DNA of 64,000 bases from Catajapyx aquilonaris (taxonomy: Eukaryota): the NCBI GenBank assembly GCA_000934665.2, contig KZ538001.1:62001-126000 (forward strand), read 5' to 3'. This document shows, one piece after another, positions 11,271-57,346 of this stretch. Under the pieces are notes generated by a model. That model had not been told where the DNA came from. It did no database searches and worked only from the letters and a program-made list of their open reading frames with translations. A program made the translations under genes and the position numbers. Each line of letters starts with the position of its first letter. Positions within the stretch are counted from its first letter, which is position 1.

Positions 11271-13673
11271 CGTGGAAAGGTTGATGCAAGAGGATGTTTT
11301 TGCTATCGTTATGAACCACCCAGTTGGACGAGTGACGTTCCCCCTCTTTTTATGCAGAATGGACAAAAAGGCCTAGAGCTCCTGTCAACGCCATGCTAAA
11401 TACGAGGGTGTTTCCAGAAGGAATGTTTAATCAGGAGCTACAACTGCGTTCGTCATAATTTGATGAGTTAGGCCGGCTTCAAAAAGACGGCTGTTGACGT
11501 GGTGTCGGCCCCAAAATCAACCGGAAAATAGCGGGGGGAATCACATTGTCGCCTGGTTCTTTGATTAAAATGAATGCGGTCGGTTGCTACCTGTTATCCC
11601 GGTCCATTTGTCACCAGCCGGATTCTCACGCAAGTTGAAACCGCGACATTACAATACGAACGTGACATATGAGCCAGGCTTTGATATATACGTAACTCAT
11701 TCATAGCACAAGGAGGTGAATCGGAACCTTTTTTCCCCCTTTTCTTTTCTTGGTTCCATTTATCTTGGGAAATCTGTGCGCGCAAAGCGCTTATTGGGCC
11801 AATATGAGGCGGCTCCCAGAAGCTGCCATCCATCATTTTGAGGGAAGCAGAGGCTTCTGGGGCCCTTATGCCGAGTGCACTCAACTCCAATACCTAGCAG
11901 CATTGTGATGAGTGGACGCCTCTTCAAAGCAGTCCGTGTTTTTCTGACGTGAAGTGGCGTCATTCCCAATCATGTCGACCAGGGGCTTTCGACAATCCCG
12001 CCCGTGGACTTCCCATTGCCGTACCTGCAAAGGGAATATAATAGCGGGCACCAGTACTCTACCTCTTCCTAAAGCCCCTCCTAGCCCGCCAGCCTTGAGG
12101 ATTGGAGAGATGGTCCTCTTGGGAACCTGAGGTCGGAAGTTTGAAGCCTTGATTCCATATCTTTTCCACCACTACCAAAACTTGCCCCCATTCCCATAGA
12201 GTCAGTTCTTACGACTTGCAAACTCGAGGATCTTCTGGCGCGAATTTATGAGCGACAGCCAACTCGTGACTAATTTATTTGTATCACATACATTTATTAT
12301 GGGACAGTTGCTACCGGTGTGAGCTGAAAGTGGAAACCTAGTTGTTCCCAAGCACTGTGTACGCCTTTAGAACTGGGCCACTATAGTCATAACTCACGCT
12401 TGCCTTACCTGCAACCTAATGCTGAAGATGCTCTCTGGAGGACCTGGCATTGTACAAGGATTTCGAAAACATGGGAGACTCATAACCAATGAAGGCGTCT
12501 CCGGCTCCGGTAATTTCTGGGGCTAATCTGTGACTTGGCGCATGTTGATGATTTTGCTAGGGTAAACACAATCCTCTAGGGGCTATGCAGTGGAGCAAAT
12601 ACGTGCCAGTGCTGGCGTTCAATTTTGTTTCGGAAGTTAATCACGGAATGCTCAGCAGTTGAAGCTGACTGATTTGAGCAGCCGCCTGTCTGTTGGCGAT
12701 GTTGCGGGATCTATTAGCGCATAGAACTGGCTTTACACTGTTTTTGGCCGGTAGACTGGCCGACACAAACATACCCGTCGAGGAGAGTTTTGCTTCAAAA
12801 TAGACATGGCTGGTCAAGTTGGACGAGACACAATATTGTTTTTCCTTTGCGTAGACAGTGCCGACATCATAAGTATACCACGCATGTCACTTGCAGGCAT
12901 ATGTAGCGCTTATAATAACTCAGCAGTTTTGCTCTTTGTTGAAGAGTTAGGGAGTCCGCCCTGTGTTTCTTCAAAAAGCGTGACATTTGGACCTGTATTG
13001 TAATTCTGGCTTTACGGTTGTTATGTTGAGACGACGCCACATGTTTGTGACCAATATACTAGAGCGACCTTTTCGATTCCTTTATAGGGTGTATTTAACG
13101 CACATGACTGCGCCTCTTTTTTCTGCTAGTTGCTTTCTATGCACTCCCTTTTCCACTGGAATGTTATGGAATATCCTGCAGGATAGATCACGCGACTATC
13201 ACGCACAGTGACGGGCTTATTACCAAGTAGATAATATTACCTACCATTAAAGCTGCAGACCGTGGGCTTTAATGGGTGAGAATTTGCATGCGATTATCTC
13301 CGTATGGAGCCAAAATATTGTCAATAAACAAGTGCAATTTGGCCTTATTTATCCACAAGGCACCTAAATTTGAGACAACGTTTATGCTGTACTGTACCAT
13401 CGAAACATTTTTCATTGTTTCGCTTTGTATACCACGTAAGCGTGCATTATCTCGAAATCAGAGATTATACAAGAAAAAACACTGATTACAGTACTCTTCT
13501 GGGAATATTCCCTCAGCATAGAATAACAATAATATTAATATAACACAATGAATATGTATTTTAGTAAATTGGCATGAAAAGTATGGGAAATAATACACAT
13601 GTGGATAAGTTCAGTGTAGATTTAATATCACATTACTTATGATGTCCTGTCGAAGTGTCAATGTGTGACATGT

Positions 13674-13744
13674 GTTAATTAGTGCCATTTTCTTTGCAGG
13701 TAAGCATCGTGACTGAAGCTGCCTCCAACATGCTGCCAGTAAGT
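13674..13744 (+). promoter_or_regulatory. Candidate recursive splice site (ratchet point) with 39-nt cryptic RS-exon
   Basis: gttaat...ccattttctttgcAG|GTAAGC (AG 13698-13699, GT 13700-13701), then a second consensus donor GTAAGT at 13739-13744. Same strand as the Ig exon. Confidence 0.65.
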
Positions 13745-30300: not shown

Positions 30301-32799
30301 ACCGGGATCTTGCAGGCTATATTTACACTTAGCCACAATATGAGTTAGTGACACCAATTTCATGCGTAGAGTAACAACACGGTTTGATTTTGATGCATGT
30401 ACGATACGTTGTGTTATTGTGTCAGGTGCACTCATGGCCAGGGCCGTATTTACGCATGGGCAGTTCGAGGCAATTGCCCAGGGGCGGCAAATTGTGGGGT
30501 TTGGGATAGTGGAGGGTCGAAATATGGTGGAGGAAATTAGCGGAGAGAAAAATAACGCAATAACCACACGTCAACAAAGGGAAAAGCGAAGGGCACAATC
30601 ATGTTGAATAATAATGACACTGATTTTTTTTACTGGGCTGAACTGCTTTGATTCTAGGCTTGGGTTCCGATGGGCTTGCTTCATTTAGAGATAGTAGTGC
30701 CAACTAACTAAACCAGGAATGTCAGTTCATATCAATAATCACAACGCAACCAGTGCCAAAGAAAACATATAAGAATTATCCCATCCGTGACCAATTAGGA
30801 TTGGCAACCTAGATATGAGATATTTTGTTCCAAATTTGTAAGGGAATGAAGAGTACAATAGACCTACACATGGCTAATGATGACGCCCTTTTCCTGCCAC
30901 TGCTGTAAGGCGATCTCGAATCACTTCCCATTCACCAATCATCAATCAATAAACCTGGCATCCTCTGCGACCTCTGCGGTTAGATCTGATTTTTTGTGCG
31001 GGTTTTTTATCGAGCCCGCGGGATACCAGATTGCCTGCTTGATAGTAATTGAAAAGAATAATTAATATTCTCAAATTACAAGCTCCGATGGTGTAATGGG
31101 GGATGGATGTGTTGCTCGATCGAGGCCTTCAGTTTTCCCAGTAATTTTTGAGCGATATACTGTTTCAAAAATTATCCAGTTCAGAAAGTGTGGAAATTAA
31201 AATTTTTACATACTAAGATTCTTATCTCTATTTGCATCTGAAGCCCGAATGGCATATACATGTATTCAATTATTTGGAAGTATACAGTGTTGGTTGCCTT
31301 ATTAGCAGGATGATACTCAGGCACTGGAAGAATTTTACATTTTGCTCGCTGGCCGCATATACGACTATTTCAATATGAAAAATTGCTGCACAGTATAACG
31401 CAAAATCAGTGGAAAACTTTCTATTTTTAACCGATGTGATTAAAACAAATCCAGCTAGAATATATTATCTCCACTAAAAGCCTGGATTCTGGAATATCTT
31501 GTAAGTAATCGAGATTCTAGAGCCTGCCCAAATGAGTTATTAATATCTAATGAACCCTCCAAATTAATACTGCGTTAGACTACAAATCTTTGCAGAGACT
31601 GGAATGTTAATATCAATCTGAAAGTTGAACATTTATTGCTCATTATCCTCGTGCGGGAAAGTGGACCACTTACTACCCTATATCCTGCAGTTGTAACTCA
31701 GTAATTCTGGCCATAATTCCCTCTACACATATGTGAGCTTCTCCTTCGTTTAATTCGGCCCTACATTGCCTCAATTTTGTCTGCCACTACTTAAAGCCTG
31801 TTGTATCCATTCTCAGTGGCTCAATTGGGAGCGACACTATTGTTGAAACCGCAGCATGTACCAGGTGCCGCCCGGCACATCGATGGCGTCTGCTTTTCTC
31901 GTCTTTTCCCCCAAAAGATCGGAAGCCTTTTCCATTGCGCAGTGAAATTGGCCTATTCCTCATGAACCTTCAACCATGACCGTGTTCCCTCCATAAACTC
32001 CAGGAGGCGATTAAATCTTCCCACCGCACTCTGTCTTCCGACAAAAGAGATGGAGGGGAGGAGGGGAAGGAGAGGGGAATCTTCCATAGGGACTGACCGG
32101 AATATGACGTGTGTCGCCACCTATCCACCCCAGGAGAAATCAGGCAACGCGGCGTAGGAACAAAATAATTTCGGAAATGGAACTTCTGATGGTACGCATG
32201 AAAAGCGTGGCTCGAGTTGATCGACAAAAGAGATGAGAAAGAAATGGGAAAAAAAAGTACTTGGGTTTCTAGGAAATAGTGTCTGAGTTTTGTAAGGATC
32301 CGGGGATCTCTGGGATCTGCTTGTCGATCGTTGGGAAGAAGAGGAAGTTGTAGCCTACACTTCATGGACTACGATTTCTTTATCTAGGCGCGTTCTCGGA
32401 AAGTTTTCTTTAATTTGGAGGACATAGTGCGCGAACGTAAAACTTCTCCGACAAACTGCCTCCTCCAAGTTTTCTCAAGGTGTTCCGGAAAATTCGCTCG
32501 CCGTTCCGCATCGTAATGCGCTCTGGCCTTCCTTCGGGGGAGACTGCTGGGCTATGGCAATTAGGAACGGATGAAGGAAAAGGGAACAGAAAGGCAGTCT
32601 AGTAGTGACTTCCAGGGCTAAAGGTAACTAGTTCGAGCCAAGTAGCTGACTTGGGCTGCCCCATACACCTCACACTTTAGAAACACCCTGTACACTCCAT
32701 AATTTAAATTGGAAGGTTTGAAGTTGAATGTATTTTCTGTCTTTACCTGGCAGTGATTTGGAATTGCAGGCATCCATTAAGTGTGTCTACAGAAGCAAG

Positions 32800-32831
32800 C
32801 CCCCCCCCCCCCCCCCCCCCCCCCCCTCCCC
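32800..32831. repeat. Poly-C tract
   Basis: 27 consecutive C, then tcccc. Shorter C/G tracts containing an N lie at ~4623-4642 and 37777-37791. Confidence 0.95.
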
Positions 32832-34159
32832 GTCTTGTTAAGTAATAAGGGGAGAGGCCTGTGGGAATAGGGACGTAATGAATTGAAAAAGGAAGAGCGG
32901 TCGAATATTCGGAAGAGTGTCGTCAACAGCGCGTCAGGCCGGGTTGTAATGAGAAGCTGAATTTTCATCTGACATCTTAATTCGCACCCACTCGGCTGCA
33001 ATTTTGCCACAGCCATATTCGTAGCAACGGCAGCAACAGTGAAATAGGATTATGACCGGCCTAAGTGATAATGTGCACAATTAATATGGCCTCTCTGCAT
33101 TCAAGTTCTGTGCATTAATTTGACTGCCGTGTTTGTTTGCCCGCTAACTAGAGTGCCGTTGGCGACGGCTGCATCCGTGCTACAGTACTTTGCAGATAGT
33201 TCTGTTTATGCATGAATTTTTAAGCGCTGCGTGTGACATTATTGCGACGGCAGCCGACTTGCATGCTAGAAGAATGTCCAGTTTGATTTCTGCAGCAGTT
33301 AGGTACCGGTACTGACTCAACTGGTTAGCGTGAAGGGTGCCGATGACGGATGTGGCAATCCAGACTGCCGTTTTACTTTCTTCGTGCTGCGCCCGGCAAA
33401 TGCGCGCTTTAGGTTATTGTTGCTTGGCATGCGAAACACTATTTGAGGCAAAAGTGGAGGCACGCTCTATACGTACACTGCAGGATGATGGTAGGGCCTG
33501 GAGGTGTTTCAGGAAGTGCGTGATCAACTTTTTTATTGTTCATTGTCGTGAAGAGCGTATGCATTATTTATGCTCCTCTCGTTCCATTCATATAGTCAAG
33601 ACAGCCGTCTTATCAAAAGCAAGATCGGTCGACTTCTTTGATTCACGCTGTTGACACTTATTGCAACAAAAATCTGTAGGGATTCAAGCAGTGTACAGTA
33701 ATATCGACGGTTGCAGCTGGTATAGGCTTCGGCTGAAAGGCAGTATTCATTACAAAAGCCACCTAGGCAGAAGCGGAAGCAATGAAATTGCAGATAAGAA
33801 TGATGCAGTAACTTTCTCGGCAGCTTCAACATTGGCAGCATGGGGTAGGCGGATTATTTTCCTTCGTCGAATGTTGCGGAGGTGAAGGGAGAAGCAGCAG
33901 GAGGGAGGGTGGGTGGGAAGAGGAGAAAAATGGGGCTATGGGGAAGGGGAATGAGGGAAAGGAGCCGTATGAAGGGAGATCAATCTCAAAGATGAAGCTC
34001 CGGCACATGGCGGCCGGAAATATTATAAGAGACTTGAGCTCCTTCTCGGTTCCTCGGTTTCGTGTTCTGAGCATACACGGATCACTTGTCCCGAATTGAA
34101 CTCATCCCTCGTCCATAAATTGAATGAAAGAGCTCGGTTCTGAAAGCCCCATACATCTC

Positions 34160-34160
<1 letters not shown>

Positions 34161-34220
<60 letters not shown>
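34161..34220. repeat. (ATT)n microsatellite
   Basis: 20 perfect units. Confidence 0.97.
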
Positions 34221-34223
<3 letters not shown>

Positions 34224-36514
34224 TGGGTGTATGTTGTAGGTAGGTTAGGTAGACTATAGCTGGGGGTTGATATAGCTCGGGTGTGTGAGGGCGGAAAAAA
34301 TACTGGCCGTCTGGCGATTGGGGAGTCTGCACTCAATCCTCAAGTCAGGCCGGAATGGTCGTTCATAAATCCTGAGCCGGTGCACGTCGTGTGGGCCGCC
34401 CCCACCACGGCCACATCTTTGTTCGCCCAGCCTATTGGTACACCCCTCGGCAAGATTTGAATGCTAGTCAAGTGGCGGATTGGGAAGACTCAGGTGGTGA
34501 CCCCCCTCCTTCAACAGGCGTTTCAAATCTGGTGTCAAGTTGATTTGAAAGAGCAAACGCTGAGGCCTCTCTGCCTCCAGAACCTCCACTCCACTATCTA
34601 GTTGGAAAGCTTGCGTGCTTGGCGACAAGCCAGCTCCACTCTGGAGCTTTGGGAGAGAAGAAGGATTGTTGGTCTTTGCCGGGTTTGGAATAGCATAAGT
34701 TAGTGTATATACCGGCTGGTAATCTCGCTGCGAGTGAAATATTATATTATTGTCTCAAGCTAGTAGCTGCCAGGGGGGATTGGGTACAGGGCCAGATCTC
34801 ATCCTGGGACGTATGCAACCAAAGTGGCTCTTTTGCCCACCTCAGTTGCGGGCTTGCCGGGCTGAAAACTCGCCATGGGAAGTTGCCGATCCGGGCTTGT
34901 CTGCATAATGCCATTGTGGCAGAGCTTCTGGCAATTCATAACAACAATTTGTCAAGAAATGGGAAGGGCCTTTGTCAGGGGTGAACGCCACATGAATTAT
35001 TCATGCTGGGGCGCGAATTTTTCCTTCACTCGCTCGGCTCGCAAACATTTTCTGGTTTTTTTTTGCGACTGGAAATTAGGAGATGTGGGATAATCTTTTT
35101 GGGAGTGGAGAAAACTTTTTGGGATGCACCTATTGTGTCAATTTTTGAATGCATTGTTGTAAAAAAAATGACAGGTACCAAGTGTAATGTCAGCTCAGCA
35201 CTGTTTCTGGCAGGCGTAGGTCCAAAAAAGTAGGACCGAATTGCATGCGAAATGTTTTGCCTTTTCGGATGGGTGCAATTATTGTGTGTTGTGGCTGAAG
35301 AGAAATGATGCCAGAAGCATACACTTTTTCATCCTGGCCCTCTCTTGTCGTCGTTCAAAGAGACAGGTTTTATGGTGGACGGCTGGTGGTTCAATGAAGT
35401 AGTCAGCCGCACTAGACCATTGGGGAGTGTGTCACATGTGTCTCGGCCACATGTTACACATGGCCTTCTACACCACCAGGCGTCGGCTGCCTCCTCTCGA
35501 CGGATATTTATCCCTTTGTAGCGGAAAAAGCCCGGGAGAGTTTCTCGGCAATCAGTTGAGAGGTAAAGGATTTCTAAAAAAAATAATTATGCGCTTATAA
35601 AGGAAGGCGTATCAGGAGAATGGGACTTGGTGCGGCACACACTTTGCTGTCTCTTTATTCTCCAGGAAGGAAATCAGTAGTTGGCTCCAGATTTATTGCG
35701 GACGTTCGTTTCGTAAGGAGAAAAAGGGTGCCTCAAAGTGTGAAAACGAGCTCAGAGAAGCTCTGACGGTTTTGATGTTGTATATGTCGTGGCTTTACTT
35801 CCCAAGTGAAGCGTTCTTTAGAAGGCGGACTTAATTCCTTCCAGAGCTTGCCTTTGATGACTTTGACGTTGCCTTCTGCCAGGGCTATTTTGTGTTTGCG
35901 CTCTAGCTTGAAGGGAGAAACTATGAGAAGAGTCCAGGAGAATCAGAGTGCGAGGTTGCTAATTAAGAGGTAGAAATGCGAGTTATTACTTAAGATAAGG
36001 CGTTTTAAGGAAATCTGACCCGATCGTTGTAATGAGAAAATATGTTTTGGACGTAAAAACTGCACTTTGAGCCGTTACGTACGAAACGCGCATTGTAATA
36101 GCAAAATTCCCTCTTAGTACTCCGGGAAGCACTTTTAAAGTCTCAGGCCAATTGTTATTAATTCATTCCTCAGAATAAACCTTATTAAAGACTTGTTGTA
36201 GCTTTCAGGATACTTTTGGCATTTTCCGGAAAATTAAACAGTACAGTTTGAAAACTCGAGTGACAGTTTGGGTAAATGCTCCACTTATTCACAAGAGTAA
36301 TTCCGGATTTGTTGCAATCTTCATTTGGCCATATTTCCCGCCTCCGAGTATGAAACTAATCACTCACCGCGGATCGATCCAGCTACCGGTTTCCATCTTT
36401 TATAAAACACCAGGCGTCGACTTTGAAGCACTTTCTGGCAGCCCGTCGCTCGCAATGTAAAGTGTTTGAAAGGTGCATGGATGGTATTTAAACTGGAGCC
36501 TGATTGCGACAGCG

Positions 36515-36547
36515 CTAACACAATTTCCTCCTGTGTTGCAGGTAAGC
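36515..36547 (+). promoter_or_regulatory. Candidate recursive splice site (ratchet point)
   Basis: Branch-point CTAAC (36515-36519), AG-free pyrimidine-rich tract acaatttcctcctgtgttgc, then AG|GTAAGC (AG 36540-36541, GT 36542-36543). Confidence 0.62.
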
Positions 36548-36861
36548 GAGGATCTGGCGCGGCATGTGTTGCGCGTCTGCATCAATCCCTCTCGGCCAAA
36601 AAGTTTCTCCTTGAAGCGGCGGTCTGTGAAGCATGCTTGCATAGATATTAATTGCGCCCATTAATAAGCAAGCCGTGCATGTGGGCCGGATCGCAACGAG
36701 CAGCGATTTTTCAACCGGCTGCAGTGGGGAAGACACGCCATTCTACTCCCGAAGTCATGTAAAATCTTGACTACTTTTTGAAAAAAACAACAAAACTGCA
36801 GAGTCAGGAGACGCAACCAGTATAGGTTGAAGAAGTGTCCAGTATTTTTTAAGGGACAGGT

Positions 36862-37064
36862 TGTGAGGTCGACCTATCGAGAACGTCTCTACTGACTCTG
36901 ATTACAGGTTGCCAACAACCGGGTAATTAAACTAGCTTCATCTCCGGCCATCTCCCGACTGAGACTCAGGTTCGTCACTCTCCACACCCCGCATCCACGC
37001 CATCTCTTGGCAAAATTGCCAACTCTCAACTAACCCCATCTTCTGGATGCGGGTGGATGTCACA
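36862..37064. mobile_element. Solo-LTR-like element, copy B (203 bp)
   Basis: TGTGAGG...TGTCACA termini; ctagc-tctccggc-tctc-cgactga and aactaac-ccatct shared with copy C; cccatct..tggatgcggg shared with copy D. Flanks AGGT/AACT are imperfect. Confidence 0.65.
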
Positions 37065-38886
37065 AACTACACACTGGCAGGGTTACCAGGTATAGTCGGA
37101 TTTTGCGCAGCTGCTTTGCCTCCGAAGCCCCCGTCATGATAATTAGCAGTCGGCAGAAGAAGATTCGCATTCCGGCCCGAGCTTCGAAAGTCATTAGAGA
37201 ATTTGAAGGCAACGTAATGGAGCCCGGAGAAACGTGGCAGTCCTCCTCACCTGACGTGTGACGAATTAGTTTGCAGGTACTCCTGATTAATTTCACTTGG
37301 ACCAAGTGCGGGGCTAGGTCGGTGGGCGAAACATTTCCCACTCCGCAGATGTACCGGGGAGGCTTTCTTGACGGTTTACTGGTCGTAAACTCCATCTGCC
37401 GGGTCCATATGAAACAGGCAGTAAACCCTGGCCGGTGTTTAAGAATAAAGGAATGACTTTTATCGCCGGCGGAAAATGAGCTGTTCGCTCCACGTATGGG
37501 ACATTTTGATGGCGCATGTCAAGCATAACCGCCAAATATTATTATGGATGCCAAAATGCCATGTTTAAATCAATTCTGGTATTCATGCACATCCAGACCC
37601 GGCAAAATGGGGCGTTAGTATCTGTGCGGAGTAGCGCATTGAACATGTTTTGTGCTAATTAAACGGCAATTCGGGAGCAAAATGTTACTAAGCCTCGACT
37701 GGGTATAAACTTACCCCTGGCTACCATATTTTCACCAACTGATAATCACGTCGGTATACCCTACATATGGTCTTACGGGGGGGGGNGGGGGTAGTATAGG
37801 GCTTAGGGCTACACTACGATAGCAAAGACTAGTTGTGTATACATAGCAACAGTTAGAGACCTCTTGATGGTGTTCTCACGCTCTCGTTGTGAGACAGCCC
37901 TGGTTTTGAACGCGTATGTGCGCGCCGCACAAAAGCCTCAGGACTGGTGCTTTGAAGTGGTGTCCTTTGGTGACAAGCTAATGGGTATTCATTCGCCTTT
38001 CATAGACACTCTACCTCCCGATGAATCCCGCTCCACAAATGCCTCTGACCAGGTTTTGCAGCGCTAACTGTAGACACAGCAGCAGTCCTTGTTGACACGG
38101 TATTTCGACGACCGCGTCGGTTAGTTCACTTAACCGGTTCCGCGCCCTGCATCACCAAAAGCTGCATCTTGAGTCCTGGCTGAAACATAGTCCGAATATT
38201 GAGCCAGTTTTTCCAGAGTAAAACCGGTGCTACAACGCCTGGCCCAGCTTTTTTTTCTTCTTTTTTGGTTTAAACATGCAGAGATATGCAGTGAATTCTT
38301 TCCGAGTCTAGGCGTAGTATATGGGAGGGAGGCACCCTTGAGCCCGGACCCATCAGAGGAGCCCAATTTCTGGAGTCTTTTCGTCCCCCACCCGCCTTCC
38401 GATTTCCCGCCTTGCGCCCCAAATTATAATGCGGAAACGGGTGTTATCTTAAGACGGGAGAGATGCAAGCTCTCCTCCCGCCCTTCCTCCTTGCTTTGCG
38501 AGTTTCATTCCAAGCCCTGTGGAAATGGGTTTTGCTTTGTGCCGGAGTCGCTTGGGCGGCTTCATCAAGCGGCAGGAAACGAGCCAGTTTTCCTCTTGTG
38601 CCGACCAGAGGGCTCTTTGCTATTGCTGTCTAGCATAGTCGGGGGCTAGTTGTTGCTCTAACTAGACTTGCTGCATGTCCGTTTGCGCAGATGAGCTGAC
38701 ATGTCTCCCGGTTTAGACGTGGAAAAGTACCTAAAGTATCGCTTGATGCGAGCTGCCATCAAGGGACGATATTAGGGCAGGTCATCATTCGCGTTGCAGA
38801 GCGCTGATGATTACAGGCACTGCTGAAAGGACATATACTGTGTGTCAAAAAATGTATCCAGGCGCTATGCATTTGTTCGAACTTAA

Positions 38887-39034
38887 GCTGCGTTTACATG
38901 TGAGCGATTTGACAAGCGAAATCTTCTCCGAGGCTGAGTAACCCAAGTAACCAATGTTGTTTCAGGCGAAAATCGATTGTTAATTTCAGCCTCGGCGAAG
39001 ATTTCGCTCGTCAAATCGCTCATATGTAAACGCA
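38887..39034. mobile_element. PIF/Harbinger-like MITE hairpin
   Basis: 49-bp inverted arms 38889-38937 / 38986-39034 with 3 mismatches. Left end TAA-GCTGCGTTTACA resembles Harbinger-type termini; right terminus and TSD are not intact. Confidence 0.72.
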
Positions 39035-39080
39035 CACACGAGGCCGTTGCTAGAAAAACATCCTGCCAAACCATTCAAAT

Positions 39081-39259
39081 TGGGAGATCAGACCTTCCTA
39101 AGTAATCTCTACAAACCCAGAGCGGTCGTCGTGGATGTGGTCCAATAATTAAACAGATGTCTACAACCTAGCCTGGTCTCCGGCTGTCTCGCGACTGACT
39201 ACAACCTCAAGCTCCACCCCAGGTCCACACCAGAACTAACTCCATCTAGGGGAGCCACA
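39081..39259. mobile_element. Solo-LTR-like element, copy C (179 bp)
   Basis: TG...ACA termini, exact 4-bp TSD AAAT (39077-80 / 39260-63); collinear motifs with copies A and B. Confidence 0.68.
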
Positions 39260-42200
39260 AAATCTGATGGAATATGTACGATGAGGCCATATCAGTGAAT
39301 GAGAGTGGAGAGTGAGTTGTTCAGGACAGGTTAGCTGCAGGTAGAGGGGTTTTTGGGAGAACGCGTGCCAAGTGCTCGAATGACTGGGCGCAGATTTTTG
39401 GCGTTCCAGTTCGCAAAAGGGCCGCCGGCAAATAGCAAACTGAACTGTCTGCCTTGTGGCGGATTAATCAGCAAAGCGCAGCGGCCAGAATCGTCCAGTC
39501 TCCCGGCTCCATTTGGCAGCCGGCTGAAAGGGGGTTGGTTGAAGCTCGCATCCATGAAATTCTTGCCTGCAAATTGCTCTCCAAAATTGTTAGCTGGGGG
39601 AAAAGCGGGTCCAAATATTTATCCAGTGTTGTGCGTGCACCGAATCTGACAGAGGAGGAGGTAGCACGGGCCTGGAAATAATCATTTTAGTCTACTTGAC
39701 TTCTCGACTCCTTCTGCACGCGTGTCGGCTCGCCAGACAGTTTTGTACAGCTTTTTAGAACGTGGTAAGGCAGAGGTTGAAACATATATGTTCAATGTAG
39801 CTAATTACAATTAGTGATTTTTACAATTTTTCTCTCTCGAATACGCCTCAATAAAAAGGTATGTGCGCGCGCAAGTCTGCACTGCGGTCTTTTAAAGGCT
39901 GGCTTTTCTCCGGTGAAAAGCAGAGTACCGAAACTATTCACGGGACTTCTTATGTATGGCAGCTCACTGACTCGCCTTTGACGGCCACTTCAAGCCCTGG
40001 TATCAAGAGAGAGCGGAACGAGAAAAATTGTGGAAGACAATACTGCAGTACGAGTTCCGTCAAAGGGACGCCTCAGTGTACTGTTGAGATTCCAGGTCCT
40101 GTTGCTATGTAAATATTAGTGAATGATTTGGCACGTGAGACGTGGGTCACGTGTCCTTTTGTAGACCAAGGCTTTTTGTTAGTCGCCCTTGGTTTAAGTG
40201 TGGGGCTCAAAGTGTCCTTCCATAGCATCTGTCCAGAGCCAAGGATGATAATGGCAGTTGTGTATGCGCTAGGGCCGCGCAGAAATCCCATCTCGTGTCG
40301 GCCGGCACCATGAAGGGGAAAGCGCGCGGACACCGGTCTGCATAAAAATGTGGAAATTTTCTCACGGGGACTGGAAGTGGAGCTGACATGACCTCAGCCT
40401 GCGCTGGAGTGCTGGATGTCCCCGAGAAGAACACCCCCTCCTTCGGGGTTGGTCCGTCCGTTCCCAAAATGGTGCGACTTGAGAAGCGAAACCACACGGA
40501 GGAATTGGTTAGATCCGAGTGTGTAATGGGGGCGAGGCCTAATTACAAGGGTGGAAATGGGGTCTCCTTTTGTTGGGGCTGGCGGGGATGGCCTGCTGTT
40601 CCCGGCCCATTCAACCGGCAGACGACCAGAGAGAGAGCCCTCCGCCCCTCTCACTAATGCGCCCTCGGAGATTAGTTTGTTGAGCGCAGGCCCAAATCAG
40701 ACGGCCACGGCACGTCAGGAACGATGGATCCACCCGAGGGCAACGCAACTGCATATATGCCTCTCTTTGCTTCCATTTGCGCTCACGAAGCTTTGGACTC
40801 CGACTGCTAATGCCTGAAATATCATTATGAGCCAAGGTAGTGTGAGCATTAAATCGTGACAAGGCAATTCCAGTCGATTGTTGACTTTTCAGTTCACTAT
40901 CGTCGAGCTCCTGACAGGGCACGTACTGGAGGCAAACTTCTCATTAAAATTTGGTCGCCAAGATGAATAGTTTGTTGTCAGAATGGAAGTTGGGTGGATA
41001 GGAAAATGGCGGGGTGCCATCATCACCATGTTAATAATCTGGGGTGGGGGAAGAAGGTGAAAAGCAGTCAGGGTGGGAAAGCTCGACGAAGGTGAAGATC
41101 CGGGCTGAAAAGCACTGATCCCCAAACCCCGAGCATTTCTAATCGGGTTGGAACGCTGATTTTCACTTGAAAGCAAGAAGCAGGCATGCAGCCTGAGCTA
41201 GAGGAGAGAAAAGCAGAACTAGAAATACGGATGGGCCTGGAATTGACGGCTGCCTAGGACAGAGCGCTGCCTCCCCCTTTCTTCTGGAAATGGGACCATG
41301 CACTTGATGGAAATGTTCCGCTGATGCTTTGTTCACGCTGTTTGTACTCCCCTGACTTTTAGGTGGCTCCGATTTTCAAGTCGAATTGGGGGACTAAGCA
41401 GATTTGGCCTTTAATTATCTCACCCTTGCATGCCTTCCTTTAGTTACGACTGGCAGAATGGATTGGCTCGGCGTATATGTGAAATCACGTCACTCCAAAA
41501 TCCAGTCTTGAATGGCTCATTGCAGACACGCCTCGCATTGCTTAAGCAGGACGCTTGTTGGCCCAGTAGCCATTCATTCTGGCCTTGTTGAAGGAAGGAA
41601 GTTCATAGTTGATGTAAGGGTTGACCTCGCGGCAGCCTCCCGAGACAGCGGCCTTTTTGGTGAATAGGTGGGCTTGGTGCAGGAGTGGCTCGGACCTGGT
41701 GATTGCAAAATAGGATCTTCCTTCCCGTATTACAGTATACTCTCATAACAAGTTTCACTAGGTGGGGTTCCGCGATTCATGCAGGAGTTTGTGCAAGGTG
41801 TATGTGAATACAGGCCACAACTTTAGAGCCGTCAGGCACGGGGATGATTGGGTTTCCCTCCGAAAGCCTGTAGCCTAGACAAACTTCGCATCCAGCTTCT
41901 CTGGGAAGCGAGGCGCAGTACCTACTGGTATTATTTAAAATTGCGCTGTAAGTATAATAATGCACGGTACTTAAAATGAGAGCTAGGTCGTTCTTCTATT
42001 GCTTGGCTTCAGAGAGCCAGCGTTCATAAGCGAATCACAGTAGGCACGAGTTTGTTACCCTGGCACAATCCATTCAGACTGAATAATCAATATGTTGCAA
42101 TGTTTGATGCAGTTCCCCATCTGCATGAATGAACGTTTTTGTGCAGAAATAAAATTACAAAGTAACCAGGGGTATTTTTAAAAATGTGGGTACGTGTTTT

Positions 42201-43978
42201 GAGTGTTCTGAAATTATTATTTCCAAATTACATAAATTGTATCGATTCTATGAATTCAGCGAAGGTCTGTTTGGCCGAGGGATTCGGAATGCGCTGTTTG
42301 TAGTCGAAATCGGTCCTGAACGTCATGCAAATAAAAGAATAGGGCAATTACTGTATTAGGCTGAAAGTACTATGGGTATAATTTACTGTGCAGTGAACAC
42401 GATTAGTGAACAATATTATTTAACTGTCTGCTACAAAGTTCAAAAGTTTCATTCAAATTAGCCATTATTTTAATTACCTAGCTTGACACATTATCACAAT
42501 AATAATCAGCGTTGAATGCTGTACGATTTGTACGATCAGTATTGCACTGAATGAAGAATGAGTGGACGGTGTATGCAAACTAACTTGTTGATGCGGCAAT
42601 TTCCCCAGTCCATTTGCAGAAGTCACGAGTAGGCAATATTGGGAAGAATAACTGTACTACTATTGTGTGCCATTAACTTTTTTCACGGGCCGGTTACCCG
42701 TCAAAGGGAGTGCGGGAGAGCATTGTGTTCAGCCCGAAATTAAAACCCTTAACGCCTGCAGCCGCCAACTAACAAGGGTTTTTACCAGCCTCAAATCAAA
42801 TAGAGAGAAGTCAATATGTTCATACCTTCTCTGGTTTAATAATAATAACAATAATAATGATAATATTATTATTATAATCGAATGAGAGGTTAACCATACG
42901 GGAACATATTCATTAGCACACGCTCTTGTCTAAACCTCAGCAGAGAGCAACTAGTCAACACTATTTAGCCATCACTCCCCGGCCGGTTAGTTTGATTTAG
43001 CGTGACGCTAATTCGGGCAGTACCGACATGACCCGTAAAAAATTTTACCGCTTCGGATGATTACATTTGTTGTTGTCCGTGGCGCTCCCGTAATATATGC
43101 TCGTCTGAAATTGCGAAATGTGTACGAAGTCCAAACAGGAGTAGCGACATCAGCACACACATTTACACACATTCGCCATCTCTCACCCAACGCGCCCGCG
43201 CGCACACAGACACACATGTTAGTGGGGTCCACCACAAAATCCCGCAACTGCACATAGCCGCCATTCCGCAGAAGGGAATTATTAGGACACATGTTCTCGC
43301 GGGACAAGAAAATGAATGGTGATAATAATGTAGGCCAGCTGGCAATGGATGGAAATGTTGCAGGGGCGATCACCAGGACGGGGGGGCTCATTTAGACACG
43401 GCCGGGATACAGCTGCATGCATGTTTGAGTGAAAGGTAACCCAACAGTGCATGGGGCCAAGTAGTAATGAGGCCGCCAGCCAAGCTGGGCTGCTGACATG
43501 GAGCAGCTGGGGGGATGCTGTGGCCTATAATAATAATCATCATCATCATTGGCCGGGCTGACTTTTTTGTGCTGGGGCCTCCCCGATCATTTTAATCGAG
43601 GCGGAGGACCAAGTTGGGTCGGAAGTTGCATTTCCCCGGTTACATGCTCGCAATCAAGTCGCGTGGGAGTGTTGATACTCCGGTTCAATAACCTGGCAGG
43701 AAATTACTATGTGGGAGCACACAATTCCCCTGGTTTCTAGTAGCATCAGATGTGACAAACGAGGTTTTTACCTACTCGGAAGCATGTCGGAAGGATGCCC
43801 ATTAGATCTGTTTCGAGACATTATATTTGTGCCCGTGTCACGTTTCTATCTTTACGCCCGTGTAATTTGATTAGGAGTCAAGTGCTTTTCCCTATTATGG
43901 CGACGGTGCTGTACAGATTCTGCGGCTATATGGCAAAAACCTAGGAAGTGAAACTGGTTTTATTTTGCTTATATGTGA

Positions 43979-44337
43979 TTTTTATTAATATTTTTATTTA
44001 GTTTACCCCGTGATGACCCTTACGGGTGATATAGGGAGGTGGCATACCACCATCAGTTTTCTGTATATATTTTCAGCTTCATTCTCCGGTGCAAGGAAAC
44101 AGGGACAATGGGAAAGGATAGGGATTTTTGGGGAGGGAACATGGGTACAAGGTGCAATGTCGTAGCTATGGGTCATGTGCTGTTCCCCAGGAGGTTAGGT
44201 TGCCAGACACTTTGGTGCAGGTCAGAGACCCTCCTGACGCAGGTGAAAGGAAAGTTCCCCAAGCGGGGATCGAACCTGGGGCCTTTCACTCAGCAAGCCG
44301 AGACGTTACCATCTCGGCCATCTACACCTCCCCCATA
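43979..44337 (-). mobile_element. tRNA-derived SINE (second family)
   Basis: Minus strand: A box TGGCCGAGATGG, B box GGTTCGATCCC, unrelated body, 3' hairpin ACCC-GTAA-GGGT, then an A-rich tail. 9-bp TSD TATATGTGA (43970-78 / 44338-46). Confidence 0.85.
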
Positions 44338-47300
44338 TATATGTGAATAGGGAACTACAGCATGTCTCAATGCAATGGTTTTGATTTGAAGCCCCTGCGA
44401 TGTAGGCAACACGTTGCACAATAGAGGCTTTTGGGTTGCGTGTGTTTCAGGATGAGGCCAGGCTCGGGTTAGATGGTGGTTTCGCATCCTTGCCTTGTCA
44501 ACCTGAACATAACCACCAGCATAAATCCGAAAATCCTCGAGGGTAATTAGTGCAGGTTGACTTGGAAATGGGCACTTGGGTCCCACCCCTCCTTCCCCCT
44601 AAAGAACGCAATGCCTGCGGAATAATGAAGCGGGCCGATTCTGTACAATGGCACCCGTGCCAGATGGCTGCTTCCACGGAGACCCAGCCGGAAAACAAAG
44701 AAGAAGGGGAATGAGCCGCACCTATTGAATGCCCCCTCTCGACTTGCCACCAGAATGTTATCATGGGGAATAAGACACTTCACTTACCCCGCTTTCTCCA
44801 TGCCCCAGAGGAGATGTTCGCGGCGCTTCTTATCTGTGATCAGGACAGTGACTCTCAGCTTCCCTTTTCAAACTTGTTACGATTGTTTTATGGTGGCTAT
44901 TCATAGGCAGCAACAGTTATTTGCATTCCGGGCCGGAGATGGCACTTCATTGGGAAGGGCAATGGGGTCGAGTTGGGAGAGAAATTGTGCTCAAATTTCA
45001 GGCGTTTACACCATTGTTGTGCCAACTTTGTATTCAGGATCGCGATTAATGCCAGCATTTTTATGGAATGAAAGAGTGCTGGGTACTGTACCTTACATGT
45101 AATGCTTTATAGTCCGACGTTTTACATGCCAAGTGTCTCTGAGATAACGGACGTTGGCGCACTCGTATGGCTAGTGAGTTCCGCTATTAATAGAACATCC
45201 CCCAAGAGGTAGACTTTTGTCATAATCCGACACTGGAGACAGGAGGTAATTAGTCCCGCTGTTTGCTCCTGGGCAGCTTGGAGTCGCTTCTCTTCCCCCA
45301 GTTGTCACCAGCTTGTAAGTTAGACGGACTAGATCTCTCACGCTAGCTTGGTCCAAAATAATCATCGCATTTTTTCCATCTCACCGGCTCAACGTAGCTT
45401 TTTGCTATAACCAGCATGCAAATTACGGAGATTTATGCCAAAAGTAATGACACGAGGTTACCTCGTCAAGCTTGGAGGAGCTTCATCCTGGATGTAGGCT
45501 GTGCCTAGGAGCAAAGGGTCAGTGTCATATGTTTTGACCGAGTCCTTGGAAAACTGTCTATCCGGCACATTTCGAGTGTTTTCGGTTGGTTACACACAAC
45601 TGGAACCCTCGGGCAGGTCGCTGGGATGAGAGTTTGTGACATGCTGCTTCGCTGAAAGCTGGAGGCTTCTCCCGAGCCTAATCGATGTCAACCCTTCCTT
45701 TTCAAATGCTGTCAAGGGTCAACTGGTGAATGCAGCCAGTATTGCACTGTGGTGGTCTACTCGCAATATTACACGGCCAAACACTGGCCGGATTCTGCCT
45801 AGGGCATATTTAATCTCCCCTTCTTTGGAACCGGTTTCCAGGTTAGGGAAAGAGGGGAGTTGACAGTTTCACAACCGACTCTTCCTATACGCACACGGCT
45901 ACAAACTTACCAGTAATGTAAATATAGGTTTGAAATTCTGCCTCGTGTGAGAAAAGGGTATGCGCCATGATCTGGACTAACAATGGCAAGGCAGCACTCA
46001 TGTGTCAGGGAAGATTGAATTTTTGTTCACATTGCCACAGAACATTTCCTCTTCTCGCTGAATCGAACACCCTGAAAGACGAGACATGAGAAATTCGGTT
46101 GTGTCATTGTTGCAGTGGGTTACTAGACCCCAGAAGCGACAGTTTACAAATACGAGGTAGACACTGTACTTGCAAGAGAGTGCAGCTCTTTGCCCGTGTG
46201 ACATAAAACATGGAAAAGACCTTTTCGAATCAAAAATCTTTCCCTTTGCCATATCAGCTTTTGGCACCGTGTATAAGTAATCCTTTGTGAAAGACCACAG
46301 TGCTGGCATAGTAGAAGCTTAGGTCAGGAAAAAATACCTGTGAACCAACTTTCAAGTTAATGAGACCCACCTTTAAGTGGCAAAGAAGTAATTTTTTTTT
46401 CTCTCGTTCTTTTTCACCTTTCCTTTTGGATGGATATGGTTTGAGTCTTTTTGTAACGTGCGGGTCACTTTCTTGATTCTCCAGATTACTTTTTCCTAGA
46501 AGTGCGTTTTTTGTTCCGTTTCTCTCCTTTCTCCTTTTTTCCCCGCTCCTTTGGGAGGCTGGGGATAGGAGCAAGGTGCTCGGAAAGAATAAATTACACC
46601 ACTTTAGTAGAAGGCTTGGGAGCCACATTTTAGCTGCCTTGTGCCACTTTGGTGGAGACGATTATTTGCTTCTGTCTTGTCCCAAGTCCTTTGCCCCCTG
46701 CGGCATACGGGTGAAAAAGACTTGTGAAATGAGACGACGGTGTAACATCTTAAAGATTGAGTTGTAACAAAAAGTCTTTTAAACCTCCATCTATTACAAG
46801 TACGGCTGAAGCTTTATGCAAAAAAAGTGTTCATTGCATGACGTCACATTTAGATTGATATGTTTAAAACTAACCTGGACTGTCAAGTTGTCTGGATGCC
46901 GATGGTTTTGTAATGTTCTTCTGACAGCCCTGCGATTGTGACCGTCTCAGGGACTAAAGAAAGTAGAAGTGGTTTGACAAACCCCTTATTCCCATGCTTT
47001 TCAGCCGTCAAATATTCTATGTATGATGGCTCTCACACACGTGAACACAAAGGACGTGGGCACGGTAAAAAGAGAAAGGGGTGGAGAAAGCAAAATCTAG
47101 AAAGGACACGGCCTTCTAGCCTCCTCCACTGGGACTAGGAAGGCCTATGATCTTCGGAGACTGGCTGTCGGCAGCAAGAAAAGCGCCAAGTGCTTTCAGA
47201 CAGCTTCAGTACAGTCGAAGCAACCGGTCAAAGAGCAGGAAATGGGATATCTTCCTAACTGCCATACGTCACTGTAGTTTCCTAGTAAATCAGCTCGGAG

Positions 47301-48508
47301 TGCAAAAGGGTTGAGGGGGGGAAGGGGGGTGGCAGGGAGACCCGGGAAGTCTATAGTTTGGGACCACTCGTAGTGCCTTGTACTGTACTATCCAAAGGAG
47401 AATAAGGACCATTTTTTATTCTCCGCCATATTATTTTGGTAATGAAGGCAAATTGCTTTTCCGAAGCCGCTGGTATATATGGGAGACGGCCAAGGCAACG
47501 CCCCAGTTGAAGGTACACCAAATGGAAGTAGTCCTAATGGGAAAAGTTGGCACATCTGTTGCAGATATTCACGAGGAAATTTTCTGCGAGAGAAGAAAAC
47601 GGACTGCTTAAATACGCAATATTGTCAGTTGGAATAGGCATGGCCAGTCCGTCTTTTCTTTACGATTGCCGCAATTTGTTTTGGCTAACTGCGACACACA
47701 CATTAAGGATTAGTTTTGGAACACAACTTAAGAGTAGATGGCGGTGTCACACGAGTTCATTCCTTTGGACACCCTCTGACTGAGAGCGGGCCAATACTAG
47801 CGATTTGCTTGTATTGTGCAGTAGTTGGATAGCCATCCTTGGGCCAGAAATGTTGGGGGCAGGAGCCCTTTAGCAAGGCGGGGTCGGGCCCTTTGGCAAA
47901 CTCGCTAGTTTGCGTGTCTGGCATAGGAAATAGCACCTGTGCCCCGGCTGCGTTTGGCGGCTTGTTTGCAATGTCTGTTTGAGCAGCGCCGCCGGCGCCC
48001 ATGCCGGTACCCGGATAGGCTACTGTACTATGTATACACGGGGCCCCACTTCTTCCTTGGGAGACCCCTAGGACCAAGCGGTTCGTGCCTGAGGTCAGAC
48101 CAGGATCCCAACACACTATTACTTCTCACTTTCATCCATTGCATTTTGCTGGATCATTCTGTGCCTGAAAGTAAGATGCCAACATTATCTCACATAGTGT
48201 TGAAAAAATACACGAAATTGAATTGTATATGCAGGAATTATTTCACTTGAAAATGTTCAGAAAATGTTACGAGCGAAGACCTTTAACTTCTTTGCATTCA
48301 CAAAGAAAAGCACATGTTGCTCGCTCTCTTTGCAGAGAGCGAAATGACGTCATCTGACCCTTGTTTGTGTCTCTTTATGTTTTTGTGGAAGCCAGAAAGG
48401 GATTCTGGTAAACGTGCATCTCTCAGTCTCCCTGCCCGATGCCCCCAGGCGAAGTAAAAAATTCATCTGCCATCCAGTTGAGAGAGGCAGCTCGAGTTGG
48501 CTTTCAGC

Positions 48509-48570
48509 GGGGGAGAGAGAGAAAGAGGGGGAGAGAGAGGGGGAGAGAGAGGGGGAGGAAGAGAGGGGAG
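48509..48570. repeat. Polypurine GA-rich repeat
   Basis: Repeated gggggagagaga units, purine-only stretch. Confidence 0.85.
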
Positions 48571-48859
48571 CTGTTTTGAATTTAATATCATTTTCAGAAC
48601 AAGACGTTATTTTGTTATATTTTTGTTCTCGTAAAACACAGCATTGCATGTTTCTTCGACAAGCAGGAATCAGTACTTACGTAGTTTTATAAAGCAAAAC
48701 TAGGCTCTTTATTTTATTTTCATTTTCATAATGTCTTGTTACCAGGAACCCTATTGTTTGCTTGATTTCTTGGTTCAGTAGTTGAGTAATAAATGAGGTG
48801 TTAAGTGTGGATTCAGTGACTTTTCTACAGATGGTTATCAAGCCAGGCGATTTCTCGTA

Positions 48860-49021
48860 CAGTGCTGGCCATATATCGAGGCAACCGCCAGCGACATTTT
48901 TCCGAAGCGGCAGAAGAAGGAATCTAAGATAAGCATGCTACAAGCCGGGCGAGCAAGATTCCTTCTTCTGCCGCTTCGGAAAAATGTCGCTGGCGGTTGC
49001 CTCGATATATGTCCAGCGCTG
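48860..49021. mobile_element. Tc1-like MITE, 162 bp hairpin
   Basis: TA TSD (48858-59, 49022-23); 66-bp arms (48860-48925 / 48956-49021) with 2 mismatches, inner 56 bp perfect, 30-nt loop. Terminus CAGTGCTGGCCA matches the start of the Tc1-type TIR. Confidence 0.88.
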
Positions 49022-49327
49022 TACTCAGTAAAATGTGACTCTGGTCGTTCTGTATTTCTTGTCTTCATATTATGTTAGTAAACGTAATCATATAGCCTCT
49101 GACATCATGCTGGTATCATATTTTGGGTCATTCAGTGGAAAATGCGGCTTTCAGCGAGGAGAAAATGATGCCACTGTTGGTGATGTTGACTATGGTGAAT
49201 TGACAGGAAAGACAATGTGCGTTGTTACGTTTTTACATCAACCTGGCAACAGCGGAGAAACAAGGTGGCCATCCGCCACTGTTATGAAGGAAAAGCGTGT
49301 CCTTTTTGTATAGTTATTTATTCAATT

Positions 49328-49386
49328 CTTGCGTCTCCTTCATCGATGACTACCTCTTATAGGGAAATGTGATCATGATCATGATG
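49328..49386 (+). mobile_element. Second copy of the same retroelement 3' end, (GATCAT)-type tail
   Basis: cttgcgtctccttcatcgatgactacctcttatagggaaatgt vs cttgcgtctcccttcatcgctgactacccctcatagggaaatgt at 58295; no TSD found. Confidence 0.7.
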
Positions 49387-50340
49387 TTTTAATATATTAT
49401 AGCCCTACTTTCCCATGCATTTTGCGTTAATTATTTTTGTCCTGAAGCGATTATTACCAGAAATGTTTTGGATAGTGTGAATAATTGTCGGCGTTATGAT
49501 CATATTTACTTTCACATTCCGAAAAGCTCTCCCGCAAAATGGTCGGGGTGAAGTATCACTTGTAATTCTGTACCATAATAGAACCGCATGTGTTGCAAAA
49601 ACCATCTGCGCTAATATATTTATGGCCTGCGTCGACGATACATTCTTGTGCGTTTAGGACCGCTAGGAATTCATCGCTTGCTATATTTTAAAAAAATGGA
49701 GAGCCTCTTCACTTGCCTCTTCACCCCAACAGCACTTGTACGCATCAGCAATGTAATATAATCAAAGTAAAAATGTCAGGAATGTATGCACTGAAAACGC
49801 ACCGCGTATTTGTGACGCGTATTCGACTCGGTTAAACAGTATAGTATGCAGCCGTCTACTTGGAATAAAAGAGGGCGAAGCTGAAAACGCAAAACTCAAC
49901 TTGATCGATGAAACTCACGTGCCCGGAGGACTGCACATCATTCTAGTAGTGTATCTTCTTCAACTTACCTCCAAGGTTTTATATGTACTCTTCCCTCCTC
50001 TCCACCCCCCACGGCATCCCTTTTTTTGGTATGGGCGAGAAGAGGCAGGCGGGTGGATCCGGGACTCTGGGGCATGTCCAGTTAATGGAGATTCAGGGAC
50101 TGAGGCCTCCAGAGGCGAAGCGGACACCCGGAGCTGCGTAGTCTCTTTGGGCATGTCGGGTCCAAGAGCAGTGCCAGGCGCCATTCGATTGCCACCTAGA
50201 TAAACCCCATGACACTCTACCTCGCGATAAATTTTGTAGCCAGCCAGGGATTCAGTGTGGGGTAGATATGTATCGACCGCGACACTACTTGAGTCATGTG
50301 TGGACCGATATATTTCAAATGAATATTTTTCTATTTACAG

Positions 50341-50475
50341 TGGAAGGGCAGCAGCAGTATTTCCGGCTGGGACCTCTGGATATTGACGTCAAAGTGGGCG
50401 ACACTGCGCTCCTCAAATGCGAAGTCAACAATCAGGCTGGCGAGGTGCAGTGGACAAAGGATGGATTCGCCCTTG
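50341..50475 (+). CDS. Internal coding exon (135 nt, phase 1/1), N-terminal half of Ig domain 1 of a nephrin / Sticks-and-stones / Hibris family cell-adhesion protein
   Basis: Acceptor tttttctatttacag ends at 50340; donor G|GTAAGT starts at 50476. Translation (x)EGQQQYFRLGPLDIDVKVGDTALLKCEVNNQAGEVQWTKDGFAL(G) has the Ig B-strand Cys and C-strand Trp. QWTKDGFALG is the motif I recall from arthropod Sns/Hbs (Kirre/Rst have QWTKDDFGLG). The paralogue cannot be assigned from one exon. Confidence 0.92.
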
Positions 50476-53400: not shown

Positions 53401-53654
53401 GGGCTTAATGAAATGATGGCAGCGGACTCGTGTTGTCGCTCCCTCCCCATGCTTCCCCATGGCGTCACACATTCCATATGCAGTTATTTTGTTTTGGCTC
53501 GCAGGAGTGTGCAGAGTGTAATCTCGCCAGGTTGAACGTACTAACGTGTAGAGTTTTTATAAGTGAAATGTTTTTGTTATTATAGTGTGTAATTTTTATT
53601 AAGTAGCCAGCTGTGGGGCAAAGTGAAAAAATACTATTTAAAATGCGAATAATA

Positions 53655-54412
53655 CGAGGGAGAATCAAAAAGTAATTGAGTAATCTTTTAATTCAAAGGT
53701 TTCACTAGAGAAACTGAAACTAAGATATACATAATTATGAAAGTGCAAGTCTTTCTCTAATTTTAGACGTAGTCGCCATACAATTTGGTGCATTTGTCCC
53801 ATCAGGACACGAGTTTTTCCATACCCCTGCAGAAAAAAGCGTCCGACTGGGTGGGAAGCCAGTGGGAGATGGCCTCTTTCACTTCCTCGATGTCGCTGAA
53901 GTTCTGACCTGCCAGGTCCTTCTTCATTGGTCCAAAGAGATGGTAGACCATGGGTAAAATCACCCCTTTGGACCAAAAAAGAAGCAGCTGGCATGTCATA
54001 ACTTCAGCGTGGGTGGGAAGCCAGTGAGGGATGATCTCTCTCACTTCCTCGATGTCACTACGTTCTTGAGAAGCTAGTGTTTCTTTTTTGGTCCAAAGAG
54101 ATGGTTTTACCGATGTTCTACCATCTCTTTGGACCAATGAAGAAGCACCTGACAGGTCAGAAGACCTTCAGAGACATCGAGGAAGTGAAAGAGGCCATCC
54201 CCCACTGGCTTCCCACCCAGTCGGGCATTTTTTTTTCTGCAGCGTTATGGAAAAACTCGTGTCCTGATGGGACACATGCACCGAATTGTATGGCGACTTT
54301 GTCTAAAATTAGAGAGAGACTTGCACTTTCATATCTATAGGTCAGTTTCAGTGTGTCTATAGTGAAACCTCTTAATTAAAAAATTACTCCATTACTTTTT
54401 GATTCTCCCTCT
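53655..54412. mobile_element. Non-autonomous palindromic mariner derivative made of two inverted transposase 3' ends
   Basis: TA flanks at 53653-54 and 54413-14; termini CGAGGGAGAATCAAAAAGTAA ... TTACTTTTTGATTCTCCCTCT. The left arm (-) encodes the mariner C-terminus YHLFGPMKKDLAGQNFSDIEEVKEAISHWLPTQSDAFFCRGMEKLVS*WDKCTKLYGDYV*; the right arm (+) carries a diverged, frameshifted copy. Confidence 0.93.
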
Positions 54413-55045
54413 TAGTATGAACGACAGGGCAAGCGTTTCGCAGATTCATTGTGGCTGCCTAGCTATATGGGCCGTATGGGAGTAGAGCTGCATCCAAATC
54501 CACTGATCCTTGTTATTGGGTAAACGATACCAGGAAGGCTATCGATCGCATACTTCACCGATTCACGTACTACTATTCATCATTGGAGTGGATAATGTAT
54601 TGCATCGTTTAGGATGAATGAAAAGGTGAAGCACCTCCTTTATTTCTCTAGTGTCGCCGGATGACTCCTATAGATTTGTAGCGAAGCTTTAAGTAATTGA
54701 TTATACCTATAATTTATCTCTACCGATGTGGAAGATGATATACCTATTCATATACAGGGTGTGCTTAAAGTTGCTCATTTTCTCTTTGACTCAGGGCTCT
54801 TGCGATATGCATGTACAAAATTACTATGACTGACATAATATATAGGTGATAATATCGTGTTAACTTTTGTTTCATACCTGACACAAGTAATGGGGGATAT
54901 CCGGCGGGTTATTCCACCGTCAGTCAGCCGAGCTACATTAATCGCCTGATGTGCAGAATGTCCTGTTATTCACATGTGTACATGTAGTTCATATGCAATT
55001 ATTTCCGCAATGAAGCTCGTCCAAAATGGCCAAATCACCACCACC

Positions 55046-55084
55046 ATAATAATAATAATAATTATTATTATAATTATAATAATA
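55046..55084. repeat. Mixed (AAT)/(ATT) microsatellite
   Basis: ataataataataataattattattataattataataata just upstream of the V-SINE. Confidence 0.85.
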
Positions 55085-55111
55085 CACCAGATCGAATCAT
55101 ATGAACATCTC

Positions 55112-55378
55112 TTAAATGGCGACACTGTGGCGGAGTGGTTAGCGCCGCAGCCTTCCACCTCTAAGGTCCCGAGTTCGATCCCCGGGTCGGACGAAGGATA
55201 CTTATGCGGATAGAGTTTCGATGGGTTCTCTCCATGTTCGCGTGGGTTTCCTCCGGGTTCTCCCGTTTCCTCCCGCAATCAAAAGGCAATGATTAATGAC
55301 GGTTATTCAAAAGATGATCCCCTAAGAGGCCCAAGGAAGCCTATCACGGGATATCCATTATTATTTTTAATTATTATA
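55112..55378 (+). mobile_element. tRNA-derived SINE carrying a V-domain (V-SINE type)
   Basis: A box TGGCGGAGTGG (55128-55138), B box AGTTCGATCCC (55172-55182), central GTTCTCTCCATGTTCGCGTGGGTTTCCTCCGGGTTCTCCCGTTTCCTCCCGC matching the V-SINE core as I recall it, ATT-rich tail, probable TSD AACATCTC (55104-11 / 55379-86). Confidence 0.88.

Positions 55379-57285: not shown

Positions 57286-57286
<1 letters not shown>

Positions 57287-57343: not shown

Positions 57344-57346
<3 letters not shown>

Follow-up and report, generated by a model that had tools for sequence, protein, structure and literature searches.

The window (the whole stretch of DNA analysed here, 64,000 nt from contig KZ538001.1 of Catajapyx aquilonaris) has a single detected coding exon, at 50341-50475. 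The 50 kb upstream of this nephrin-family exon are otherwise without a detected exon and carry two high-scoring sites, on the same strand as the exon, at which an acceptor is directly followed by a donor sequence. Here we focus on the second of these, a putative recursive splice site at 36541|36542 on the forward strand, which combines a branch-like CTAAC, an AG-free stretch, TT and CAG|GTAAGC. The features are:

50341..50475, forward strand: 135-nt coding exon with both boundaries in phase 1, encoding the start of the first Ig domain in a nephrin-family protein
13694..13744, forward strand: companion site, with an acceptor at 13699|13700 followed by GTAAGC, a 39-nt segment and a donor GTAAGT at 13739
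36515..36519, forward strand: branch-point-like CTAAC (motif only), with the putative branch A at 36518 (-24)
36524..36537, forward strand: pyrimidine tract within the AG-free zone, ending with TT at -6/-5 (36536-36537)
36539..36541, forward strand: 3′ splice acceptor CAG, with its AG at 36540-36541
36542..36547, forward strand: the sequence GTAAGC, the donor that would be regenerated upon splicing to the 36541 acceptor

The closest single-stretch matches of the Ig exon in an HMMER search were 55-74% identical. Ten matches were checked, among which five are named nephrin or nephrin-like, one is hypothetical and four are nameless. The exon shares 24-29 identities over 42-43 aa with six proteins (five nephrin or nephrin-like and one hypothetical), and both its first Ig domain sequence and its exon boundary are like those of named nephrins. 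At homologous loci the exon is also in phase 1, with its donor at the same position, and in full-length homologues the corresponding stretch comes right after a signal-peptide-like N-terminus. We take the nephrin family of the host gene to be the sns-hibris family. A word-index protein search with the 44-aa Ig exon as query returned nothing. Searching the window by tblastn with 150 HMMER matches identified no further exons, and the exon that follows the Ig exon is absent from the 13.5 kb downstream. The intron past the Ig exon (50476-64000) is longer than 13.5 kb, and the AG|GT sites in it are medium-scoring only (54340 and 58952). Rfam and ARAGORN searches of the window gave 0 matches.

A scan of the window for the upstream (signal-peptide) exon did not find it. 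The scan is non-discriminating, as matches of similar or higher hydrophobicity occurred in five of the six control loci. Its top match was an ATG-initiated ORF of 49 codons with a hydrophobic end (13288-13441, forward strand), which ends at a phase-1 GTAAGC donor (13436), 264 nt ahead of the 13699 acceptor. We rejected this ORF as the signal-peptide exon because the control loci give equally hydrophobic matches. Between 36.5 and 50.3 kb there was no convincing signal-peptide candidate (top hydrophobicity 1.69). Strand composition is uniform along the window: G exceeds C and T exceeds A in each of the four segments, the intron past the Ig exon among them, and in 1-kb blocks GC skew is positive in 53 of 64 and TA skew in 48 of 64. 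This uniform skew fits one long sense transcript.

The sequence-only reading had described a CTAAC about 23 nt upstream of the 36541 acceptor, followed by an AG-free, pyrimidine-rich tract and CAG|GTAAGC, and we recovered each of these elements. The most proximal upstream AG is at 36511-36512, the AG-free zone comprises 27 nt (36513-36539), and 12 of the 16 bases from -5 to -20 are pyrimidines. Among 4037 sense AGs the acceptor ranks 41st by an untrained score. The spacing is also as had been described (22.8 and 13.8 kb): the 36541 site is 22,842 nt past the 13699 site, and the Ig exon starts 13,800 nt beyond it. All of the sequence hallmarks of an acceptor|donor module that we tested are present. 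The motif and its rank are direct observations, as are the host exon and the host strand. Bases around the branch point could pair with the acceptor's TT tract in a 6-bp hairpin (36517-36537). Folding around the site is no more stable than in shuffles (z 0.28 and 0.65; hairpin z 0.28).

DNA contigs cross the 36541 site with 0 differences and at single-copy depth in runs X1 (34230-37723) and X4 (35663-37791). These are DNA runs from one sample, possibly the source sample, and confirm base calls only; in this respect they exclude assembly error. In run X5, 4 of the 30 bins over 31101-51100 were covered, at repeats, and included neither the 36541 site nor the Ig exon. We also considered a repeat origin of the 36541 and 13699 sites and rejected it, since the two have nothing in common beyond a 12-mer and unbroken single-copy contigs cross the 36541 site.

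The alternative that survives best is that the 36541 site is a chance decoy, that is, an unused acceptor with GTAAGC next to it, the intron being removed in one step, with the 13699 site as its sole relay, or by way of numerous stochastic sites. We consider this somewhat unlikely and nonetheless a serious contender. The short core speaks for it. The 8-mer CAGGTAAG had been estimated to occur about once per strand by chance, in agreement with the 1.71 occurrences that we expect for both strands; there are four in the window (two sense and two antisense), and because 11 of 100 shuffles reach four, the 8-mer alone is not enriched. The core pattern TTNYAG|GTRAG likewise has no strand bias in the window (two sense, two antisense). 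At the CAGGTAAG occurrences, however, acceptor scores are 5.7 and 6.4 bits for sense and -1.2 and -2.0 bits for antisense, which bears out the earlier view that the sense sites have good acceptors and the antisense sites weaker ones. The full pattern (branch, AG-free stretch, TT and YAG|GTRAG) has a single occurrence in the window, the 36541 site. Markov simulations, run at two orders, produced it in only 4 of 300 cases for each order, which argues against a decoy. It is the whole acceptor context, not the short core, that distinguishes the 36541 site.

We scored all AG|GT sites on both strands, using a joint acceptor and donor score from an untrained matrix of assumed frequencies. The 13699 site ranks first (10.2) and the 36541 site second (9.5) among 233 sense sites, the third of which scores 5.1; both exceed all 194 antisense sites (maximum 7.1). 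That the top two of the 427 sites are both sense and clearly exceed the third overall (7.1) also counts against a decoy. At the score level of the 36541 site, Markov simulations had a mean of 0.05-0.1 sites per strand, and two such sites occurred in 0 of 40 simulations at either order. With donors permuted among the real sense acceptors, the mean was 0.06-0.19 sites at thresholds of 9.45-8, and the probability of at least two sites was 0.001, 0.01, 0.05 and 0.2 at thresholds of 9.45, 8, 7 and 6, respectively. The 9.45 threshold is the 36541 site's own score, and since it is post hoc, the enrichment result for two sites depends on the threshold chosen; at threshold 6 there are two sense and two antisense sites in the window. 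Two co-oriented top-scoring sites exceed what the chance models yield, in a threshold-dependent way. A single site is more easily had by chance: at least one was found in 5-18% of permutations (thresholds 9.45-8), and the 36541 site was picked out of a large scan.

The 12-nt identity between the 36541 and 13699 sites, to which the sequence-only reading had drawn attention, is real and not special. We identified an internal control on the other strand:

12404..12415, reverse strand: antisense control with 12 nt in common with the 36541 site, shifted by one base, without a pyrimidine tract and with the closest upstream AG 5 nt away

The exact 12-mer of the 36541 and 13699 sites occurs 21 times in the 539-row fly table of Pai et al. 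(PMC6110457). Because the 12-mer is the fly consensus and the antisense site (12415-12404) likewise matches over 12 nt, the identity adds nothing beyond the consensus.

A metagenome scan recovered 20 loci, of which L018-L020 were dropped (13-aa matches) and 17 were kept. These 17 homologous loci align with the window at the Ig exon only and reach at most 10 kb upstream. None of the 17 has a sense site above the cut-off upstream of the exon; five of them (three distinct) span 7.5-10 kb and none spans 13.8 kb. TTGCAGGTAAG is present in 0 of the 20 metagenome loci, and we found no look-alike of the 36541 site in the other scanned genomes. At L008:1459, the same as L011:1455 (minus strand), there is one antisense site 8.5 kb upstream of the nephrin exon that has a strong acceptor|GTAAGC, its own branch motif and C at -6. 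Either it is a decoy or it belongs to a transcript from the opposite strand. It scores 10.0, comparable to the 36541 site, so real DNA yields such decoys, a point in favor of reading the 36541 site as one.

Direct RNA evidence for recursive splicing is richest in Drosophila and some vertebrates. The process is well known in flies; outside them it is inferred by motif enrichment in bee, beetle and mosquito. Fly ratchet points were defined by junctions, sawtooth coverage, lariats and conservation (Duff et al., bioRxiv 10.1101/006163). In that study, TT at -5/-6 was found in 196 of 197 ratchet points versus 43.8% of all introns, recursive branch points were mostly at -36 to -21, and segments measured 2.6-63.6 kb (median 16.4 kb). 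According to Pai et al. (2018, PMC6110457), 63% of fly introns >40 kb have high-confidence sites. The 36541 site resembles Drosophila ratchet points in its juxtaposed YAG|GTRAG (CAG|GTAAGC, rank 2 of 427 AG|GT on both strands by the untrained score), in having TT at -6/-5 with a pyrimidine tract, and in the branch A, which as a motif lies at -24, 21-36 nt upstream. Several sites per putative long intron, segments of 14-23 kb (the 22.8 and 13.8 kb segments are within the fly range) and a developmental cell-surface host gene are further likenesses. On the other hand, the fly sites are RNA- and conservation-defined, whereas the 36541 site is known here from sequence alone, and its pyrimidine tract is, by eye, shorter and less T-rich than those listed at the top of the fly table.

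The closest published counterparts outside Drosophila are motif-level too, namely the RP-sites inferred in bee, beetle, mosquito and sea urchin (Shepard et al., 2009, PMC2773006); here only one intron is concerned. In that paper, the sense/antisense motif ratio in large introns ranges from 4 in bee and 8 in beetle to >>10 in mosquito and 22 in fly (its Table 2), which implies that 75-95% of such large-intron motifs are under selection in these insects. The antisense background given there, about 0.1 per 100 kb, is another argument against a decoy at 36541. The fly density of 2.2 per 100 kb and the two sites in 50 kb here are of the same order, with scoring that differs (PMC2773006). The picture is not the same everywhere: the locust genome is reported to have a vertebrate-like sense/antisense ratio with no enrichment (PMC3896762), though a predicted RS site in intron 2 of locust NPF1 was tested for U2AF65 binding (PMC8892266). 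A lungfish preprint describes a giant genome without a shift to recursive splicing. We found no literature that links the nephrin family or sticks and stones with recursive splicing; major fly site tables could list orthologues. For sns, hbs, kirre and rst there were 0 matches in the Pai S1 Table (PMC6110457; FBgn ids only, S2 cells), a weak result that depends on the FlyBase ids and names used.

In one fly model, ratchet points are defined via a cryptic exon that has its own donor about 50 nt downstream (Joseph et al., 2021, PMC8605326). The 13699 site has this full layout: the 39-nt segment carries a stop in the phase-1 frame, and its downstream donor is equalled by 4.5% of random positions. 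The 36541 site is unlike the model in that no downstream donor is better than random. The top donor 20-150 nt past it scores 0.48, equalled or bettered at 51% of random positions, which favors a decoy, and there is no strong donor within 300 nt downstream, as the sequence-only reading had noted. There may be a weak functional donor. The longest candidate exon is:

36542..36680, forward strand: weak cryptic RS exon candidate of 139 nt, with a donor GTGGGC at 36681 that is no better than chance

The 36541 site remains like the model in one respect, as its strong ratchet donor would out-compete any downstream donor (PMC8605326).

It is very improbable that 36541 is instead a genuine acceptor whose unannotated exon some transcripts retain (as a cassette, poison, 5′ UTR or alternative last exon), with a GT that is incidental or only sometimes re-spliced. 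In favor are an acceptor within the top 1%, a phase-1 frame without a stop for 35 codons, and a GC content that climbs from 0.50 to 0.62 across 36541, as at the Ig exon, but this rise is modest, with 8.7% of windows equally high. ATTAAA lies at 36926 and AATAAA at 37444, yet such poly(A) hexamers are frequent, with 26 and 28 copies across the window. A retained exon also lacks a credible donor, the in-frame GTs at +24, +33 and +84 being weak, and tblastn with the 150 HMMER matches finds nothing at the site. About as improbable as a retained exon is a location outside the nephrin intron, with the gene's 5′ exon in the 36.5-50.3 kb interval or the site in a different sense transcript, for example a non-coding RNA. 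Although the non-discriminating scan left the signal-peptide exon unplaced, that interval holds no convincing candidate, strand skew is unchanged along the window, and other genes or Rfam families were not detected in it.

We therefore prefer to read the 36541 site as an intronic ratchet point, which it probably is, in the very long intron that separates the signal-peptide exon from the first Ig exon in a nephrin-family gene. This wording allows for an upstream exon that was not located and for the missing cryptic donor. The serial recursive splicing proposed in the sequence-only reading is accordingly upheld in part: the sequence suits a fly-type ratchet point and the two top-scoring sites are co-oriented, while the 12-nt identity is uninformative. 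During transcription, the branch motif at 36518 would be bound by U2 and the TT/pyrimidine tract by U2AF. Splicing to the AG at 36541 would then start from the upstream exon or from the regenerated 13700 donor, and the junction would recreate a 5′ splice site from the last exon bases and GTAAGC. Splicing from the recreated donor to the 50340 acceptor would in turn remove the last 13.8 kb. As the regenerated donor would take out the remaining intron, no bases of the 36541 site would be left in the mRNA, and a cryptic exon would seldom be included, as no downstream donor competes. We infer that the site is transcribed within the nephrin intron and used, with the steps in this order.

A more specific proposal, for an arthropod other than Drosophila, is that the 36541 site is a used, true zero-nucleotide exon without a cryptic donor and shares its intron with a 13699 site whose 39-nt cryptic exon is of the textbook kind. 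We regard this as doubtful. If it were true, one intron would offer a natural controlled comparison of the necessity of exon definition for recursive splicing, and RNA-testable evidence for dense, fly-type recursive splicing well beyond flies. Use of the 36541 site would by itself extend the list of recursively spliced loci to a gene of the nephrin family and to another arthropod-like lineage. Enrichment appears to vary among insects, being present in bee, beetle and mosquito and absent in locust, so a genome rich in such sites bears on the age and spread of the mechanism. As a single motif the 36541 site is modest; more useful is the contrast between the two sites, of which 13699 has a visible cryptic-exon donor and 36541 has none.

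Several repeats lie around the site. Contig depth is raised in the bin at 36437-37103 (123 vs about 28), from diverged repeat copies; most likely it comes from a diverged copy at 36929-37053, about 390 nt downstream of the 36541 site, which resembles 39165-39198 (79%) and 62910-62988 (74%). Short, high-copy inverted-repeat elements, MITE-like and sharply bounded, lie at 38885-39035 and 48857-49024; their summed contig depth is very high. The highest-copy repeat within 31101-51100 is at about 43980-44320 and is presumably SINE-like. A near-palindrome of about 770 nt (53649-54418) has arms that are 88-92% complementary. We assume that its ORFs resemble a mariner transposase remnant; a Pfam search of these ORFs gave no match backing mariner. 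A 37-nt tandem repeat at 7889-8042 has 3-4 copies with 92-93% identity. Three variant positions in one X4 contig fall at 35611-35662, and the window has two N bases, at 4628 and 37786.
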